Source: Bacteroidota bacterium
Lineage (GTDB): Bacteria; Bacteroidota; Bacteroidia; Sphingobacteriales; Sphingobacteriaceae
DNA: 64,000 nucleotides
Assembly: GCA_040388055.1 (NCBI GenBank)
Contig: JAZKCO010000001.1
Coordinates: forward strand, 160,711-224,710
Reading direction: 5' to 3'
Shown: positions 12,184-19,336 of the stretch, piece by piece
How positions within the stretch are numbered: the stretch's first letter is position 1
Layout of the letters: every line of letters begins with the position of its first letter
Program-made: the position numbers and the translations under genes
The notes under the pieces: generated by a model
What the model saw: the letters and a program-made list of their open reading frames with translations, nothing else
What the model was told of the DNA's origin: nothing
Database searches by the model: none

Positions 12184-12215
12184 TTTGATTTTAAGGTTTA
12201 AATCGTTTAGTTTTG
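12184..12215 (+). promoter_or_regulatory. Bacteroidota housekeeping-sigma promoter (-33 TTTG / -7 TAGTTTTG)
   Basis: TTTG at 12184-12187, 20-nt spacer, TAGTTTTG at 12208-12215; matches the TTTG-N19-21-TAnnTTTG consensus. Confidence 0.8.
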
Positions 12216-12219
12216 CAGA

Positions 12220-12238
12220 AATTAGAATTAGTCTAAAT
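12220..12238. promoter_or_regulatory. Fur-box-like inverted repeat
   Basis: AATTAGAATTAGTCTAAAT, core TTAGA-N5-TCTAA, between the -7 element and the TTG start. It is 17/19 identical to ATTTAGAATTATTCTAAAT, the Fur box I recall for Riemerella anatipestifer. Confidence 0.7.
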
Positions 12239-12243
12239 AAGAT

Positions 12244-14973
12244 TTGATAAAATACATTTATATATTATTCTTTCTGCCTCTCTTTACTTTTGGACAACCA
12301 GGCACCATTACCCTTAAGGGGCAGGTGCTCGATGCAGGTAACAAGCCTATTCAATTTGCGGCGATTAGGATTAAAGAAACTAATGAGGCTACTTATTCTG
12401 ATATTAACGGACGGTATACACTCTTACTAAAACATAATTTTTTTCAAACTCTTACCCTACAGGTATCATTTGTTGGGAAGCAATCGGTTATCCGTACTTT
12501 GCAAACAGCAGCGTTTAGTATTGCACAAACTATTATTTTACTCGAGCAGAGCCTTACCCTTAATGATGTGGTAGTAACGGCACAACGTAAAAGGAGTGAA
12601 GTGTCAAACTCATCTATTGTTTTCGATCGCCAATCGATCGACCAGATACAAGCCTTTAGTCTTGCAGATATATTGAATAATCTGCCTGGTAAAACGATGT
12701 CGCCACCCAACCTGCAGTATAAACAAAATGTTACCCTGCGCTCTGCTGGTGCTATTCAAGACCCTGTACAGCTAACTAATAATGCGATGGGTGTAGCTAT
12801 TTATATAGATGGCATGAGGCAGTCGAACGATGCCAATATGCAAACCAGAAATGTAGGCGCATTTGGTATAACAGGCGGTGCCATAGCGAATACAGCAGAC
12901 CCCGGAATAGGCAATCCCCAATACGATACGCCTTTTAGTGGGCTCGATGTGCGCAACATACCTGCCGATAATATCGAAAGTGTGGAGGTGGTATCGGGCG
13001 TGGCATCGGCCAAATATGGCGAATTAACAGATGGCGCTATTATTATTAACCGGATGGCCGGTAAAACAGATTACCGGGTAAACCTACGTTTAAATGGCAC
13101 TTCAACTAATGCGGCTATTTCGAAAGGTTTTAAATTGCCAGGCAAAGCTGGGGCATTAAATACCAATTTTAATTACCTGAATAGTGTTCAGGATCCACGC
13201 GATAACACCAAAAATTACAGTAGGTTAAGCGGCGGATTGATGTGGTCGATCTTTTTAAATAAAGCTATAAAAAACACATTTTCTGCCGATTATAGCCACA
13301 AGATTGATAATGCTAAATTAGATCCCGACGACGACACGCAGCAAATAACTTACTCGAAAGAACGGCGCCTGGGCTTTACCAACCGCACCTCTATAACGGT
13401 AAACAGTAACTTTTTACAGCGCATTAATCTCGGCCTGAGCTACGATGTGGGCTACCAGGAAAGCTATCGCCAGCGATATAATAATACCTCGGCACAAGGA
13501 GTGGCCGATAAAGATACTACCGGAATTTACGAAGGATATTATGTGCCTGGTAATTTCCTTTCTATCGATCACATTATTGGTAAGCCTTATAATGCAGCAG
13601 TTAACCTCGACCTAATCAATAATTTCAGCACCGGCTCGCTAGAGCATAACCTTTCCTTTGGAAGTAATTTCAGTACATCGGGTAACAGCGGGCAGGGAGT
13701 AATTGCCGATCCGTCGCACCCTTACCTTAATATAGCAGGGAACAAGAGCGTGCGTCCATATAGCTTCGATTTGTTGCGTGATATTTATAATATCGGTTTT
13801 TATGCCGAAGACCGCACACTAGTAAAAGTATTTAATAAGCCCTTATCCGTAACGGCTGGGGTGCGTTACGATTTACAGAACGGTTATCCCAGTGTACAAC
13901 CCCGTATTAATACCAGCTATCAATTAAATAGCCAGTGGGCGGTAAGAGCGGCATTTGGCATCGCAAGTAAGGCACCTTCCATGTCGTACCGTTATCCAGG
14001 GCCAACCTATTTCGATATCACGCTCATTAATGCTTATAATACCTTTGTTAATGAGAGCCTTTATTTGGTTTATACCCGGAAAATCGAGCAAGATAACAGT
14101 CGGTTAAAGCCTTCTAAGGCGAGCCAGATAGAATTAGGGACTAGTTTTGAAAGTAAATGGATCAATTCGTCGCTTTATATTTATCTTAAAAGGAATCGTG
14201 ACGGCTTAAATAGTTCTGGCGTTTTTATGCCTATTTACCTGCCAACTTATACCGTTACGCCAGTACCCGGGGGGAAACCAACATACGCCGAAACTGGGCA
14301 ATACAAGCTTTATGCTAGCCTTAGCGACTTGCGGGTAGGCAACCATGTAAATTCGGATAATTATGGCGCAGAATGGTTTGTGAGTACCCGCAAAATTCCG
14401 GTATTGCAAACCTCCTTCAATCTTAATACTTCTGTTGGCTATAGTTATTTCAATAATACAGGTACCGCCATTACCAAAGTCGACGACAGTTACATCATAC
14501 GTGGTAATACTGCATGGTATGGGATTTATAAAGCCATTCATCGTAAAGAATGGTCGGTAATAAGCAAATTAAGTAGCGACACCCATATCCCGCATCTCGG
14601 CTTTGTAGTAAGCCTAATGGCCGATTTTTATTGGTACAATGTACGGCAAGCACTTGGTAATAGTCAGGTTCCGATTGCTTATATCGATAAAGATGGCAAT
14701 ACCATACCCATACCTGTTTTTGATAATAATAATACCGATTATAATTATTTATTGCTCAGTTCGGTAGCCGGTACCAAGGTACAGGATCCGCCTTTTGTTT
14801 ACGGTAACTTAAGTTTAAGGCTGGCTAAAGAAGTACGAAAGAAATTGAGAATATCCGTTTTTGCCTATAATTTTTTAAATATCCGGGTTAAATATTACAA
14901 CCGCGAACTTAATTCGGCAAAGACTTATAATAGCCCCGTAAATGTAGGGGCGGAGTTAGCTTATAAATTTTAA
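12244..14973 (+). CDS. TonB-dependent outer-membrane receptor (non-SusC type)
   Basis: TTG start, signal peptide, carboxypeptidase-regulatory-like N-domain, TonB-box-like DVVVTAQ, plug IESVEVVSGVASAKYG, C-terminal GAELAYKF. Confidence 0.92.
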   Translation: MIKYIYILFFLPLFTFGQPGTITLKGQVLDAGNKPIQFAAIRIKETNEATYSDINGRYTLLLKHNFFQTLTLQVSFVGKQSVIRTLQTAAFSIAQTIILLEQSLTLNDVVVTAQRKRSEVSNSSIVFDRQSIDQIQAFSLADILNNLPGKTMSPPNLQYKQNVTLRSAGAIQDPVQLTNNAMGVAIYIDGMRQSNDANMQTRNVGAFGITGGAIANTADPGIGNPQYDTPFSGLDVRNIPADNIESVEVVSGVASAKYGELTDGAIIINRMAGKTDYRVNLRLNGTSTNAAISKGFKLPGKAGALNTNFNYLNSVQDPRDNTKNYSRLSGGLMWSIFLNKAIKNTFSADYSHKIDNAKLDPDDDTQQITYSKERRLGFTNRTSITVNSNFLQRINLGLSYDVGYQESYRQRYNNTSAQGVADKDTTGIYEGYYVPGNFLSIDHIIGKPYNAAVNLDLINNFSTGSLEHNLSFGSNFSTSGNSGQGVIADPSHPYLNIAGNKSVRPYSFDLLRDIYNIGFYAEDRTLVKVFNKPLSVTAGVRYDLQNGYPSVQPRINTSYQLNSQWAVRAAFGIASKAPSMSYRYPGPTYFDITLINAYNTFVNESLYLVYTRKIEQDNSRLKPSKASQIELGTSFESKWINSSLYIYLKRNRDGLNSSGVFMPIYLPTYTVTPVPGGKPTYAETGQYKLYASLSDLRVGNHVNSDNYGAEWFVSTRKIPVLQTSFNLNTSVGYSYFNNTGTAITKVDDSYIIRGNTAWYGIYKAIHRKEWSVISKLSSDTHIPHLGFVVSLMADFYWYNVRQALGNSQVPIAYIDKDGNTIPIPVFDNNNTDYNYLLLSSVAGTKVQDPPFVYGNLSLRLAKEVRKKLRISVFAYNFLNIRVKYYNRELNSAKTYNSPVNVGAELAYKF

Positions 14974-15002
14974 CTATTCATAATTAAATTCATTAATCAG
15001 CT

Positions 15003-16352
15003 ATGAAACAGATCAAATATCTATTTTTAATTACCATTTTACTTGGCGCACTTGCATCGTGTAAAAAAGATAAATCGAACGATGTAACATTACTTAAACT
15101 AGATGTAAAAACGACATTTGATGATGAAAATGCAACTTTTGGTTTTGGCTTGGATAAAGCAGAAGTGACCGTAATTAATCTGGTAACCAACCAATCTACA
15201 AAAGCAACTAGCAATGCCTCTGGCACAGCCACTTTTAATAACCTATCACCTGGAAACTATAAAATAACGGTTGTATTAACCGTGGCTGCGGCCGATTATA
15301 ATGCTAAAGCAGGTACAAATGTACAGGAAGATATCATTTACAACGGGACCATCAGCAGCCAAAGTATTACCCAAAATACACAGGCGAATGTAATGCTGAA
15401 AGTTGGTCGTGTTGGCGATTTTGTAATTAAGCAAATCTATTATGCGGGCTCTAATGCTGCTAATGGTGCGATATTTCGTGATCAGTTTTTCGAAATCTAT
15501 AACAACTCGAACGAAACCCTCTATGCCGACAGTCTTTATTTTGCGCAGGTAATGGGCATGAGCGCTGCTTCGTCGGGTATCGATCTTAGCAAAGGCTTTT
15601 ACCAAAGCAATGGTCAATACGATTGGACAAAATCTGTTGGGATGAATAATCCAAAAGCCAACACCGATTATATCTATGCAAAAACGATGTTTATGATTCC
15701 TGGAACAGGTAAGCAATATCCACTGGCACCTGGTAAGAGTATCATTATCGCAGCTACTGCATTAAATCACCAGGCACCCTATATTGGGGCTACTGGTAAT
15801 CCAATTACTGTTAAAGACCCGAGCCTTACCATCGATCTTAGTAAGGCCGATTTTGAAGTTTATCTGGGCGATGTGCCAGGAGTAAACCCATTGGCTTCCG
15901 ATCTCGATATGCCCGCTGTTACGAATGTTAAGGTTATAGATAATGGGAGTGGTCGCGACTTAATTATTGATAACCTGGGCCGGGACGGTTTAGTAATCTT
16001 TAAGACAGCTGCTGATGTTACAAAATGGCCAGCTTATGCTACACCAGATGTTACTACGATAACACCAACAACACGTATAAATACTCAGATCCCTGTAGGC
16101 GTAATTATAGACGGTGTTGGCTTACAGCATGCAGTTACCGCATCGCGTGTGCCTAAAAGACTTATCGATGTAATTGATGCCGGAGAAACCTTTGTGCCAG
16201 GAGGATCTTACTCGTCGCAATCTGTAGTGCGTAAAACAAGTAAAGTTGTAAACGGCCGTATTGTATTAAAGGATACTAATAATTCGACTAACGATTTTGG
16301 CATGCTTACTAAAGCCGATCCGTCGAAACAACCCTCATCGTTTATTAATTAA
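15003..16352 (+). CDS. DUF4876-like surface lipoprotein
   Basis: Lipobox LASC; N-terminal Ig-like part; FVIKQIYYAGS, DQFFEIYNNS, ADFEVY and LKDTNNSTNDF resemble DUF4876 as I recall it. Confidence 0.8.
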   Translation: MKQIKYLFLITILLGALASCKKDKSNDVTLLKLDVKTTFDDENATFGFGLDKAEVTVINLVTNQSTKATSNASGTATFNNLSPGNYKITVVLTVAAADYNAKAGTNVQEDIIYNGTISSQSITQNTQANVMLKVGRVGDFVIKQIYYAGSNAANGAIFRDQFFEIYNNSNETLYADSLYFAQVMGMSAASSGIDLSKGFYQSNGQYDWTKSVGMNNPKANTDYIYAKTMFMIPGTGKQYPLAPGKSIIIAATALNHQAPYIGATGNPITVKDPSLTIDLSKADFEVYLGDVPGVNPLASDLDMPAVTNVKVIDNGSGRDLIIDNLGRDGLVIFKTAADVTKWPAYATPDVTTITPTTRINTQIPVGVIIDGVGLQHAVTASRVPKRLIDVIDAGETFVPGGSYSSQSVVRKTSKVVNGRIVLKDTNNSTNDFGMLTKADPSKQPSSFIN

Positions 16353-16356
16353 TTTA

Positions 16357-17901
16357 ATGAAAGGCATACTTTCAATTATAATAAGTTTAACGCTATCGGT
16401 AACTGTATCTGCTCAGGTACAGCCCGATAGCATCTATTTTTATCGACAGGATAGCCGTGTACTCGATATGGCTTTCAGCAACGCTACCCAATTGATACAT
16501 TCGCCTTTTCAAAAAACAAGCTCGATTTCATTTAATTTTAACAGTAATAACGGACATTACCGGAAATCGCAGGAAGCGGAAAATAATTCGGCCGTTCATT
16601 TTTTTACAGGCGGTATACAAACATTGGGGTCGTTTAAATTTTCGGGTAGTTTCGACTTCGAACGGATGTGGGAGGATAGCCTGGCCTATACCATGAAAGG
16701 TTTGCACAGTGATGTTAGCCCCTTTTATTATATGGCCCAAAAAGCTGGAAACTACCAGCGTTTAAATTATAGGCTTAAGGGCACAGCTGTGTATGCTCTC
16801 GTGCCTAATAAACTTAATTTATCGGCTGGTATCGACTACCTTTTTAACTCGGCATCGCGTGCTGTAGATCCGCGTCCATCGGTCGACACTTATCATATTA
16901 TTATAAAACCAGCGATAATCTATCAATGGCAAAACAAAGCAATTGGTCTAGGCGCCGACTTTGGCTATGGTACGGAAATCAATAGCATTGGATATAGTAA
17001 CCAAAGTTTTGCCACCAGTAATCTATATCCCGACCGGTTCATTTACATGGTTACCGGATATGGGTACAGCGACAGGAAAACTGCTTCGATCGATCGTAGT
17101 TTCAGACGCAAAACAAGCTATACCGGGTTAAATTTAAATTACGCAGCCAATTATAATTCGGGATATCTTAAACTCAATTTGCGATACAATGCCTCGCACG
17201 AGAATAATAGTAACGAGTTAGACCAGTCGATTAACGATAAAAATCTGGGTACTTTCGATCTCGATCGCTATGCTGTGGATGTTTTATCAGCAAAAAACAA
17301 TGGACCATTAAAACATCAGTTCTTCATAAAAGCAACCTATACCAGCGGTATCGATTATAATACTCTTTTAGGTGGCAGTAATTATAAATATCGCCAAACT
17401 ACAGGCGAATTTGGGTATAATTTAATGGTTAACCGTAGACCCTTATCATTATTACCAGAGTTTGGCTTAACTTTAAAATACGAACAGCAATTCGGTCGGG
17501 ATATTAGTGCGGGTACGCTTGCCGACCATAGCTACTTACAGCCGGGTTTAAGCATGGCTGTTTATAAAACCTATAAAGGAATGAACCGGTTTTCGGCAAC
17601 TTTATTACCGGCTTTAAGATTGCCACTAAGCCACAAGGTAAATACGACAGCAGGTCTGTTCGATTATTTTACCAATGGGATTGTTTATCCTGACCATAGC
17701 TACTGGTCGTCTACAGCAGCGGTGTTAAGTGGCAAATTCAGCTACTTTACTCCCGTATTATTTAAGGGTACAAATACCGCATTGAGTATTTCCGGAACGT
17801 ATTTAAGACCATTAAATACTCAAACCGATAACATTATTGCTAATTTTGTGCCAAGTGGATATAGACTGGCTGGTTCGGCCAGTTTAAATTTTTATTTCTG
17901 A
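16357..17901 (+). CDS. DUF6850-like outer-membrane beta-barrel protein
   Basis: The ATG at 16357 gives a clean signal peptide (MKGILSIIISLTLSVTVSAQ). Amphipathic beta strands and a terminal LNFYF. The ORF-track start at 16297 overlaps the upstream gene. Confidence 0.75.
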   Translation: MKGILSIIISLTLSVTVSAQVQPDSIYFYRQDSRVLDMAFSNATQLIHSPFQKTSSISFNFNSNNGHYRKSQEAENNSAVHFFTGGIQTLGSFKFSGSFDFERMWEDSLAYTMKGLHSDVSPFYYMAQKAGNYQRLNYRLKGTAVYALVPNKLNLSAGIDYLFNSASRAVDPRPSVDTYHIIIKPAIIYQWQNKAIGLGADFGYGTEINSIGYSNQSFATSNLYPDRFIYMVTGYGYSDRKTASIDRSFRRKTSYTGLNLNYAANYNSGYLKLNLRYNASHENNSNELDQSINDKNLGTFDLDRYAVDVLSAKNNGPLKHQFFIKATYTSGIDYNTLLGGSNYKYRQTTGEFGYNLMVNRRPLSLLPEFGLTLKYEQQFGRDISAGTLADHSYLQPGLSMAVYKTYKGMNRFSATLLPALRLPLSHKVNTTAGLFDYFTNGIVYPDHSYWSSTAAVLSGKFSYFTPVLFKGTNTALSISGTYLRPLNTQTDNIIANFVPSGYRLAGSASLNFYF

Positions 17902-17907
17902 TAAGAT

Positions 17908-19053
17908 ATGAAGAAAGTGCTTTTTTGCATCGCAGGTGTGTTGTTGAGTTTAGTGTTGTTTTCTTTTTATGGAGACAAAGGGAGTAAATCGGAAAGTTTT
18001 TTGAGTGTAGATTCCCTGCGGGCAATTTATAATGGTGCGCCATCGACCTGGCCAAAACCAACAGTCGACGAAGGAATTAAATGGCAGGAACTTGGCGAAC
18101 TGCCTGGTACACCGATTGCCGGTAAGGAAACTGAACTAAAAAATATAATAGTACTTGGTAAAGTATTATTCTACGACCCACGTTTATCTGGATCTAACCA
18201 GATATCTTGCATAAGTTGCCATGCACCTGATATGAATTGGGCCGACGGCCGGGCAGTATCGATAGGACATAATCAAGCTGCCAATACACGCAATGCACCA
18301 TCGTTAGAAAATGTATGGAATGCTAAAAAACTATTCTGGGATGGTCGTGCCGAAAACCTTGAAGAACAACTTACTGGCCCTATAACCTCGGCTATAGAAA
18401 TGCATCAGGACCTGAAAGCCCTGCCTGCAAAGCTTGCAAAAATTAAAGGCTATGGAGCACTTTTTACGGAAGCTTTTGGGGATCGTAAAATAAACCAGCA
18501 ACGTATTGCAAAAGCCTTGGCTACCTATCAGCTTACATTTACCAGCCGAAAATCAGATTTTGATTACTTTTTGCAAGGCAATACCAAACGTCTTACCGAC
18601 CAGCAAGTAGAGGGCTTACATCTTTTTCGCACCAAAGGACGGTGTATGAACTGCCATTACGGGCCTCTATTTACCGATAACGATTTTCATAACCTTGGCC
18701 TCACTTATTATGGCCGGAATGAATATGAGGACTTAGGCCGCTATAATATTACCCACAAACCCGAAGACGTTGGTAAGTTTAAAACGCCTGGTTTACGCAA
18801 CGTGTTACGTACACGCCCATGGTTTCATAATGGGATATTCGATAATATAGAAGGGGTATTAAACATGTATAGCAATGGTATGCCACAGCCTAAACCCAAA
18901 CCCGAGCAGGTTAACGATCCGCTTTTCCCAAAAACAGATCCGCATATAAAAAGGCTTAACCTTAGTAAAGCAGAAAAAGAAGCCATTATAGCCTTTCTTG
19001 GTGCTATTACGACCGAACCCTGGAAAATTAAACCACCAGTTTTGCCTAATTAG
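17908..19053 (+). CDS. Di-heme cytochrome c peroxidase family protein (bCcP/MauG superfamily)
   Basis: Two CxxCH motifs (CISCH, CMNCH), LGKVLFYDPRLS, LFWDGRA, GKFKTPGLRNV, PWFHNG; signal peptide. Confidence 0.95.
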   Translation: MKKVLFCIAGVLLSLVLFSFYGDKGSKSESFLSVDSLRAIYNGAPSTWPKPTVDEGIKWQELGELPGTPIAGKETELKNIIVLGKVLFYDPRLSGSNQISCISCHAPDMNWADGRAVSIGHNQAANTRNAPSLENVWNAKKLFWDGRAENLEEQLTGPITSAIEMHQDLKALPAKLAKIKGYGALFTEAFGDRKINQQRIAKALATYQLTFTSRKSDFDYFLQGNTKRLTDQQVEGLHLFRTKGRCMNCHYGPLFTDNDFHNLGLTYYGRNEYEDLGRYNITHKPEDVGKFKTPGLRNVLRTRPWFHNGIFDNIEGVLNMYSNGMPQPKPKPEQVNDPLFPKTDPHIKRLNLSKAEKEAIIAFLGAITTEPWKIKPPVLPN

Positions 19054-19078: not shown

Positions 19079-19252
19079 CTATTCCTTAAAATTAAAGGCA
19101 AAAATAACTACAGCGACCATAAAGAGTACTGAGGCTAAAACCATAGTCGCTACACTGGTAGGCTCGCGATAGGTTGCCCAGGCCACTAACGAAAAAAAAC
19201 CTGCCAGTACAATAAGAACGCCTGAAATGATAAAATTCCGCTTTCTTTTCAT
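19079..19252 (-). CDS. Small two-transmembrane hypothetical protein (57 aa, absent from the ORF track)
   Basis: Manual translation: MKRKRNFIISGVLIVLAGFFSLVAWATYREPTSVATMVLASVLFMVAVVIFAFNFKE*. Basic N-terminus followed by two hydrophobic helices. Confidence 0.6.
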   Translation of the reverse strand: MKRKRNFIISGVLIVLAGFFSLVAWATYREPTSVATMVLASVLFMVAVVIFAFNFKE

Positions 19253-19336
19253 GATGTATTCTCTCCTTCCTGAAAAGAAACAAATGGGTATTCCTTTTGT
19301 TTAAATAATAAAACTTTGTTATTTAGCGCAAAAGCA

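Follow-up and report, generated by a model that had tools for sequence, protein, structure and literature searches.

A Fur-box operon joining a TonB-dependent transporter, a DUF4876 lid and a DUF6850 barrel to a MauG/MbnH-type di-haem enzyme in Bacteroidota: a candidate iron-acquisition system

We describe a four-gene operon in a 64,000-nt stretch of DNA (herein the window; positions 160,711 to 224,710 of the forward strand of contig JAZKCO010000001.1, assembly GCA_040388055.1) from a Bacteroidota bacterium that GTDB places in the Sphingobacteriaceae. It encodes a TonB-dependent transporter (TBDT), a DUF4876 surface lipoprotein ("lid"), a DUF6850 outer-membrane β-barrel and a di-haem enzyme of the MauG/MbnH type, and is preceded by a predicted Fur box. 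The overall best explanation, which we advance tentatively, is a Fur-repressed outer-membrane iron-acquisition operon whose enzyme acts on the cargo. That the unit is an iron-starvation uptake system is likely; that the enzyme acts on the cargo, and not on a partner protein or on peroxide alone, is a possibility we hold with reserve. TBDT+DUF4876 pairs were already known, themselves uncharacterised; what is new is the di-haem variant of an iron-regulated TonB system, together with its regulatory assignment. The four-gene unit is conserved in dozens of soil Bacteroidota.

Genes for TBDTs with non-SusD lids rank with those that iron limitation induces most strongly in Bacteroides and Porphyromonas, and a DUF6850 barrel joins such systems in ~7% of sampled Bacteroidota species genomes. 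The operon offers two handles on them: a clean predicted Fur operator puts it in a defined iron regulon with feoAB, and its enzyme belongs to a class known for few reactions so far (MauG, MbnH and BthA). The enzyme's substrate, once found, would show how the whole transporter family gets iron and would broaden the known chemistry of bis-Fe(IV) di-haem enzymes.

A tightly packed four-gene unit behind a predicted Fur operator

The four open reading frames (ORFs) lie on the plus strand with intergenic gaps of 29, 4 and 6 nt. The first (12244-14973; TTG start, 909 aa) encodes the transporter, with Pfam CarbopepD_reg_2, Plug and TonB_dep_Rec_b-barrel domains; the second (15003-16352; 449 aa) encodes the lid (DUF4876, 1e-28), with the lipobox LASC and Cys20; the third (16357-17901; ATG start, 514 aa) encodes the barrel (DUF6850, 9e-78); and the fourth (17908-19053; 381 aa) encodes the di-haem enzyme (CCP_MauG, 6e-50). 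Coordinates and Pfam assignments agree with an initial annotation, made from the letters alone, which had named the same families and gaps. The DUF6850 frame could also start earlier, at the TTG at 16297; with the ATG start at 16357 the barrel has a normal signal peptide and its gene keeps the 4-nt gap to the lid gene. By ORF and Pfam reading, none of the four genes encodes an inner-membrane transporter. Just 5' of the di-haem gene, within the last DUF6850 codons (17862-17896), lies a GC-rich hairpin of 11 bp, with a T-rich run after it, that could reduce read-through into gene 4; such sites are no commoner than expected by chance.

A Bacteroidota-type promoter was read directly from the plus strand at 12184..12215 (-33 element TTTG at 12184-12187, 20-nt spacer, -7 element TAGTTTTG at 12208-12215), and TAnnTTTG elements occupy the equivalent position in orthologous loci. 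A scan for sigma-70 promoters and terminators returned counts equal to the shuffled expectation; the sigma-70 consensus is not applicable to Bacteroidota, which use other promoter elements. The Fur box AATTAGAATTAGTCTAAAT (12220..12238, plus strand; 7-1-7 core TTAGAAT-T-AGTCTAA at 12222-12236) starts just past the -7 element, covers the expected transcription start and ends 5 nt ahead of the start codon. The initial annotation had called it Fur-like, and three lines of evidence bear this out. First, of its 19 positions the box shares 17 with the Fur box of Riemerella anatipestifer, ATTTAGAATTATTCTAAAT, and differs at 2; promoter fragments carrying the Riemerella box bound purified Fur in electrophoretic mobility shift assays (PMC5609570). 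Second, a de novo element search of the regions 5' of the transporter gene in 59 orthologous operons yielded a palindrome with the consensus TTATTTAGAATAATTCTAAATAA (7-1-7 core TTAGAATnATTCTAA), which is identical to the Riemerella box although derived independently of it. One or two copies are present in nearly all Sphingobacteriaceae loci and in one Hymenobacter locus; most Chitinophagaceae loci of this set have no match upstream of the transporter gene. Third, with a 23-bp weight matrix built from the orthologous sites, the window's own site left out, the box scores 25.3 bits and is the second-best site genome-wide; 14 sites in the genome reach at least 18 bits versus 1.3 expected from first-order Markov simulations, an approximately 10-fold over-representation. 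The longer matrix was needed because the 15-bp core alone is too short and AT-rich: a genome-wide mismatch search with the core showed no enrichment.

Like other Bacteroidota Fur regulon members, the operon carries a 19-bp box within ~100 bp of the start codon that it shares with iron-uptake genes. Judged by these features, the element at 12220-12238 is a Fur-type operator for which Fur binding and an iron response are predicted, and the layout supports a tightly packed unit of four genes behind it.

The predicted Fur regulon of the genome

The best matrix sites in the genome precede feoA-feoB (C1:96738), a gene for a 697-aa TonB receptor (C5:27099 and 27139), a DUF6607/FAD oxidoreductase locus (C2:564861 and 564919), hemA (C1:498104), the succinate dehydrogenase cytochrome b gene sdhC (C2:989598), nuoB (C2:406293), a ferredoxin gene (C13:28317), a multihaem cytochrome gene (C2:251345), ApbE-DUF2271 (C2:698423) and a DUF4920 gene (C2:878977-879441, minus strand; box at 18.2 bits). 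The TonB receptor and DUF6607 promoters carry double boxes, 40-58 nt apart. The set mixes iron-using respiratory genes with uptake genes, and the shared box marks it as a predicted iron regulon. Two Fur-family genes are present in the genome. PerR, whose classic targets include hemA and a peroxidase, was for that reason considered as the regulator; Fur is favoured as the presumptive binding paralogue because of the match to the Riemerella Fur box and because feoAB and a TBDT belong to the regulon.

The same data bear on whether the transporter, lid and barrel form an iron system at all. They could be a general nutrient importer, for example of peptides or small proteins, with the Fur box a loose tie and the enzyme's periplasmic role unrelated. 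Box sites in this genome also precede respiratory genes, as just described, and TBDT+DUF4876 pairs in Bacteroides thetaiotaomicron showed no fitness phenotype in 519 conditions (bioRxiv 2023.03.17.533168). Homologous loci are, however, strongly induced by iron depletion in two species (PG1019-22, 20-214x; BT3625-33, 38-128x; BT1933-39, 3.5-7.4x; PMC10434189), single or double Fur boxes are kept upstream of the Sphingobacteriaceae and Hymenobacter loci examined, if not of most Chitinophagaceae loci, and the box also stands at feoAB and at another TBDT. We consider a general importer improbable.

Transporter, lid and barrel

The transporter is not of the SusC type: it scores 49.8 bits against TIGR04056, whose cut-off is 368.25, its neighbour is DUF4876 and not SusD, and the operon is not a SusC/SusD polysaccharide utilisation locus. 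A sequence search found no close Protein Data Bank (PDB) relative of it. The lid matches BT_1938 (PDB 4Q1Z) by sequence (3e-25), and the same structure is the top fold match of its AlphaFold2 (AF2) model (mean predicted local distance difference test [pLDDT] score 92.4); the fold search otherwise returned only generic Ig-like adhesin and pilin domains. Cys20 of the lipobox is conserved among the compared homologues. A non-SusC TBDT gene followed by a same-strand lipobox DUF4876 gene is the "alternative lid" arrangement (Price et al. 2023 preprint), and TBDT+DUF4876 has been proposed to form a lid complex from AlphaFold-Multimer models and conserved proximity (bioRxiv 2023.03.17.533168). Contact between transporter and lid, and surface exposure of the lid, are thus predicted. 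The idea that DUF4876 is an MbnP-like copper protein was discarded: the lid has no sequence similarity to the genome's own MbnP, and its fold matches are BT_1938 and generic domains.

The AF2 model of the DUF6850 protein (pLDDT 93.2; predicted template modelling score 0.89) has two short helices (residues 30-47), then ~18 long strands, and no plug domain. Foldseek against the PDB returned generic barrels only (template modelling scores 0.26-0.43); this was also the outcome when the protein was checked as a known porin, FadL, Slam or cytochrome-conduit barrel, and no PDB relative was found by sequence.

A conserved core with a variable fourth gene

To define the conserved unit, DUF6850 was surveyed in 401 species-representative Bacteroidota genomes from 178 genera. 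It occurs in 30 genomes, from 24 genera. DUF6850 lies directly 3' of DUF4876 in 27 of the 29 other genomes that have it, and a TBDT precedes in all 20 of the DUF6850 regions retrieved; transporter, lid and barrel therefore form a conserved core (herein the triad). The CCP_MauG gene (CCP) adjoins the barrel in only 4 of the 29 and is wholly absent from 16. What follows the triad varies by lineage: the di-haem enzyme, a HEAT-repeat protein, a BNR protein sorted by the type IX secretion system, an ABC ATPase with a membrane protein and DUF4857, or a 280-aa lipoprotein with a small membrane protein.

Seen from the enzyme, the picture is one of stability. Among its 80 closest relatives in GTDB species genomes (48-73% identical), at least 57 loci have the order TBDT-DUF4876-DUF6850-CCP, and several others are cut at contig ends. 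This order spans Sphingobacteriaceae, Chitinophagaceae and Cytophagales, and the genera include Pedobacter, Mucilaginibacter, Nubsella, Albibacterium, Flavihumibacter, Sediminibacterium, Terrimonas, Niastella, Chitinophaga, Niabella, Gynurincola, Hymenobacter and Belliella; Mucilaginibacter and Pedobacter supply the loci closest to the window operon. The enzyme gene of Parapedobacter adjoins the triad but is divergently transcribed. The genes flanking the four-gene unit vary from locus to locus. In a quick maximum-likelihood tree, MATE+CCP, SusCD+peptidases+CCP and DUF4920+CCP contexts nest inside the four-gene clade; on this tree the CCP clade has the four-gene unit as its home (ancestral) context. 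The di-haem version is a stable unit, though the fourth gene varies among lineages. The initial annotation had taken the four genes as one unit and would have counted as refuted had the peroxidase gene not been syntenic in other genomes; the gene is syntenic in many, but the basic unit is the triad, which in most lineages is CCP-free.

Several further associations were seen in these loci. Enzyme relatives 48-53% identical end SusC + SusD + Peptidase_Mx1 + DUF4302-like + clostripain-family (C11) operons in five cases (L085, L092, L095, L100 and L105), making SusCD + peptidase operons a second recurring uptake context of the clade. A small secreted DUF4920 protein with a CxxxxC motif adjoins the triad or the di-haem gene, sometimes without the triad, in 10 Chitinophagaceae loci (L069, L070, L074, L076, L077, L081, L082, L086, L089 and L091); in the present genome it is encoded away from the operon, yet behind the same Fur box, and could serve as a fifth component or as a partner to the enzyme. 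In Pedobacter a MATE transporter gene, often with a Schlafen/AlbA_2 gene, recurs by the operon or by stand-alone CCP relatives, either upstream of the transporter (L030, L032, L059, L061, L066, L068, L071 and L073) or directly 5' of the CCP (L080, L087 and L093); MATE might export a compound that the system re-imports. An upstream two-component regulator, considered for some Pedobacter loci, was rejected: the 210-aa and 455-aa genes there encode the Schlafen/AlbA_2 protein and the MATE transporter. The DUF6850 frame appears split or shortened in three Pedobacter loci (L050, L055 and L068), as two ORFs or as a 94-95-aa fragment, which could reflect decay of the barrel gene or assembly error.

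In the window, a Pfam/NCBIfam scan of the neighbours found genes unrelated to the operon. A sialidase and a NanA-like lyase, part of a sugar locus, lie on the 5' side; on the 3' side, on the opposite strand, are a UDG-family gene and a converging small ORF (19080-19253, minus strand; 58 aa with two hydrophobic segments).

The fourth gene encodes a MauG/MbnH-type enzyme

Searched whole against the PDB, the enzyme matches classical peroxidases at ~1e-44 (Geobacter, Shewanella and Paracoccus CcpA), MbnH (6E1C) at 1e-35 and MauG at 1e-24. The N-terminal (peroxidatic) half is closest to the classical peroxidases; the C-terminal half matches MbnH best and MauG next, and has their insertion after the haem ligand. 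Both CxxCH motifs, C101ISCH and C246MNCH, are invariant in the 83 clade members, as are Tyr321, Trp144 (FWDGRA; between the two haems in MauG-type enzymes), Gln154, Glu164, Met165 and, within a clade-specific N-terminal extension, Tyr41 and Trp48; Pro158 is kept in 80 of 83 and the SIGH histidine in 74. Tyr321 lies 14 residues past His307 (the PWFHNG histidine), matching Tyr294 past His280 in MauG (3L4M). MbnH has an aligned Tyr at this position, and Geobacter CcpA has a Met that, from residue spacing rather than from a structure, we take to be its ligand. An axial Tyr separates MauG-type enzymes from classical ones, which have Met or His (PMC11892367, PMC7567364). The enzyme does not qualify as a classical His/Met peroxidase, since the ligand position is Tyr321; Met320, one residue earlier, is conserved in 60 of 83.

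The MauG and MbnH models are the best-scoring NCBIfam models found for the enzyme, though both score below cut-off (TIGR03791, 207.3 bits versus 443.85; TIGR04039, 192.7 versus 362.85), and no MbnP or MADH domain was detected in the operon or in those neighbours that were scanned. On these grounds the sequence identifies a MauG/MbnH-type enzyme, not a classical peroxidase, in line with the superfamily named at the outset; because the scores fall far under both equivalog cut-offs, it is neither MauG nor MbnH proper. We infer axial ligation by Tyr321 and a His/Tyr electron-transfer haem. The N terminus forms a hydrophobic helix in which no signal-peptidase site could be recognised, and it probably holds the enzyme at the inner membrane, on the periplasmic side.

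The genome has a single further CCP_MauG gene, 36% identical and part of a genuine MbnP-MbnH pair on a separate contig (C9, ~129.3-132.1 kb, minus strand; locus L004), and therefore no canonical His/Met peroxidase. That locus encodes MbnP (Pfam, 3e-60), an MbnH-type di-haem lipoprotein and a 335-aa barrel-like protein (2111-2884, 1063-2109 and 93-1100, all minus); the last of these, following MbnH, has an N-terminal CDICGC motif.

An enzyme with these features might simply protect the importer, acting as a periplasmic H2O2 reductase that is co-expressed with it against Fenton damage. The classical character of the N-terminal half, the conservation of Gln154, Pro158, Glu164, Met165 and the SIGH histidine, and the lack of a canonical His/Met enzyme elsewhere in the genome would all suit this role, and BthA reduces H2O2 catalytically despite His/Tyr ligation (PMC6405878). 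MauG-type enzymes are nevertheless poor peroxidases in general; a strict gene order over three families, with a 6-nt gap, would be unusual for a general detoxifier; a haem enzyme made just for protection is costly under iron starvation; and most triads lack the enzyme. Peroxide protection is accordingly an unlikely account of its function.

A conserved Asp-Trp loop in lids encoded with the enzyme

MauG and MbnH modify Trp residues of proteins encoded by neighbouring genes, and the operon products were compared between CCP-linked and CCP-less loci. The lid has an inserted loop with a conserved Asp207-Trp208 pair in 89% of 62 CCP-linked loci and in none of 16 CCP-less DUF4876 homologues; L013, of another class, and L102, from Cyclobacteriaceae, have the loop as well. 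Neither the transporter nor the barrel has a CCP-specific conserved Trp. Trp208 is thereby a specific candidate substrate of the di-haem enzyme, with moderate support from the alignment.

The enzyme could then mature a partner, as MbnH does MbnP: H2O2 would generate the bis-Fe(IV) state, which would oxidise a Trp in an operon-encoded protein. The likeliest target would be Trp208, altered before the lipoprotein leaves the inner membrane, to give a kynurenine-type or hydroxylated residue in a metal- or ligand-binding site of the lid. Of all the readings this one is best anchored in the known chemistry of the enzyme class, and it draws on the His/Tyr signature, the invariance of Tyr321, Trp144 and both CxxCH motifs, and the likeness of the C-terminal half to MbnH. 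It must contend with seven CCP-linked loci that have no loop (L010, L011, L094, L096, L097, L101 and L104), with clade members that have no DUF4876 nearby, and with a DUF4876 model that resembles BT_1938 only and not MbnP; the association between loop and CCP may, moreover, reflect few evolutionary events. Partner maturation is somewhat unlikely taken by itself, yet nearly as likely as a redox step on the cargo. The narrower proposal, in which oxidation of Trp208 (kynurenine, as in MbnP, MopE and CorA, is one possible product) builds a site for the iron cargo, is rather doubtful. If true, it would be the first case both of a transporter lid whose function requires a protein-derived cofactor and of a MauG-type enzyme linked to iron, not to copper or amine metabolism.

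Proposed mechanism

In the mechanism that we tentatively prefer, a redox step on the cargo, Fur would sit on the box over the transcription start when iron is plentiful, and the four genes would be transcribed together when iron is short. The transporter and its lid would capture an iron-bearing cargo and pull it into the periplasm, a step suggested by the predicted lid complexes and by the response of the Bacteroides and Porphyromonas homologues, which are induced under iron starvation. The DUF6850 barrel, with 18 strands and no plug, co-occurs with transporter and lid in the survey; it would be the obligate third member of the outer-membrane apparatus, perhaps as a channel or in assembly with the lid. 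The di-haem enzyme would fill a variable "accessory slot" that other genes take in other lineages. Held at the inner membrane on its periplasmic side, and with MauG-type His/Tyr ligation, it would free iron from the imported cargo by redox chemistry: it would either destroy the ligand oxidatively with H2O2 or pass electrons to Fe(III). FeoAB, encoded behind the same Fur box, would then take up the released iron.

The cargo redox step is favoured because the accessory slot is varied, the operon has no inner-membrane transporter, feoAB shares the box and relatives of the enzyme close other uptake operons; the occurrence of those relatives there, or beside MATE or DUF4920, is easier to reconcile with an enzyme that acts on cargo than with one devoted to a single fixed partner. 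We found no pointer in this analysis to haem, which the initial annotation had entertained as the cargo. For the enzyme that annotation had put forward metal release, protection against Fenton chemistry and modification of a partner as alternatives, and all three stand here as hypotheses.

Several considerations weigh against this reading. To our knowledge, no MauG-type enzyme acts on small-molecule or metal cargo, and those with known substrates oxidise a Trp in the product of a neighbouring gene. Synthesis of a two-haem protein is costly under iron starvation, the triad works without CCP in most lineages, so that the enzyme is not essential to the core mechanism. The membrane anchor, too, is read solely from the absent cleavage site.

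Comparison with known systems

The initial annotation had suggested a comparison with the Bacteroides Hmu and Xus and the Capnocytophaga Ics systems and knew of no characterisation of the four-gene unit. No link to Hmu, Xus or Ics emerged from the domain content, Ics proteins not having been compared directly: the window lipoprotein matches DUF4876 and Ig-like domains only, and not the partner lipoproteins of Hmu and Xus (HmuY and DUF4374, respectively). The second statement still stands. The Porphyromonas gingivalis pair PG1019/PG1020 was described as an "uncharacterized transport system" as late as 2026 (PMC13096392), DUF6850 is unmentioned in the literature searched, and the sequence similarity network paper on the superfamily (PMC6405878) makes no mention of Bacteroidota or TonB contexts.

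The closest relatives of the operon are BT1939/BT1938, BT3633/BT3632 and PG1020/PG1019, which have the same transporter-lipoprotein pairing and the same Pfam families; BT_1938 is also the only structural relative of the window lid. Unlike the window operon, these Bacteroides and Porphyromonas loci have HEAT-repeat or ABC/DUF4857 genes and no di-haem enzyme, and their hosts are anaerobes. The surveyed CCP-less lids have no Asp-Trp loop; the published Bacteroides and Porphyromonas lids lie outside that alignment.

With MbnH-MbnP (and MbnT, in methanobactin operons) and MauG-preMADH the operon shares a His/Tyr di-haem enzyme with an intervening Trp and the encoding of that enzyme beside an envelope metal-handling system. 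It differs from both in having no MbnP or MADH gene, in its predicted regulation by iron (Fur) and not copper, and in an N-terminal half nearer to the classical peroxidases.

Two further systems offer partial parallels. EfeUOB, a Fur-regulated iron-uptake system with the haem peroxidase EfeB, is a precedent for a haem peroxidase in iron-starvation-induced uptake; EfeB is a single-haem enzyme of the DyP type with an inner-membrane permease as partner and no outer-membrane parts, and has no homology to the window enzyme. The Fus system of Pectobacterium has neither a lid lipoprotein nor a second barrel nor a di-haem enzyme, and its FusC is an M16 protease. The parallel, by analogy only, lies in the division of labour between FusA and FusC: a TBDT imports ferredoxin, and a dedicated periplasmic enzyme processes this cargo to free its iron.

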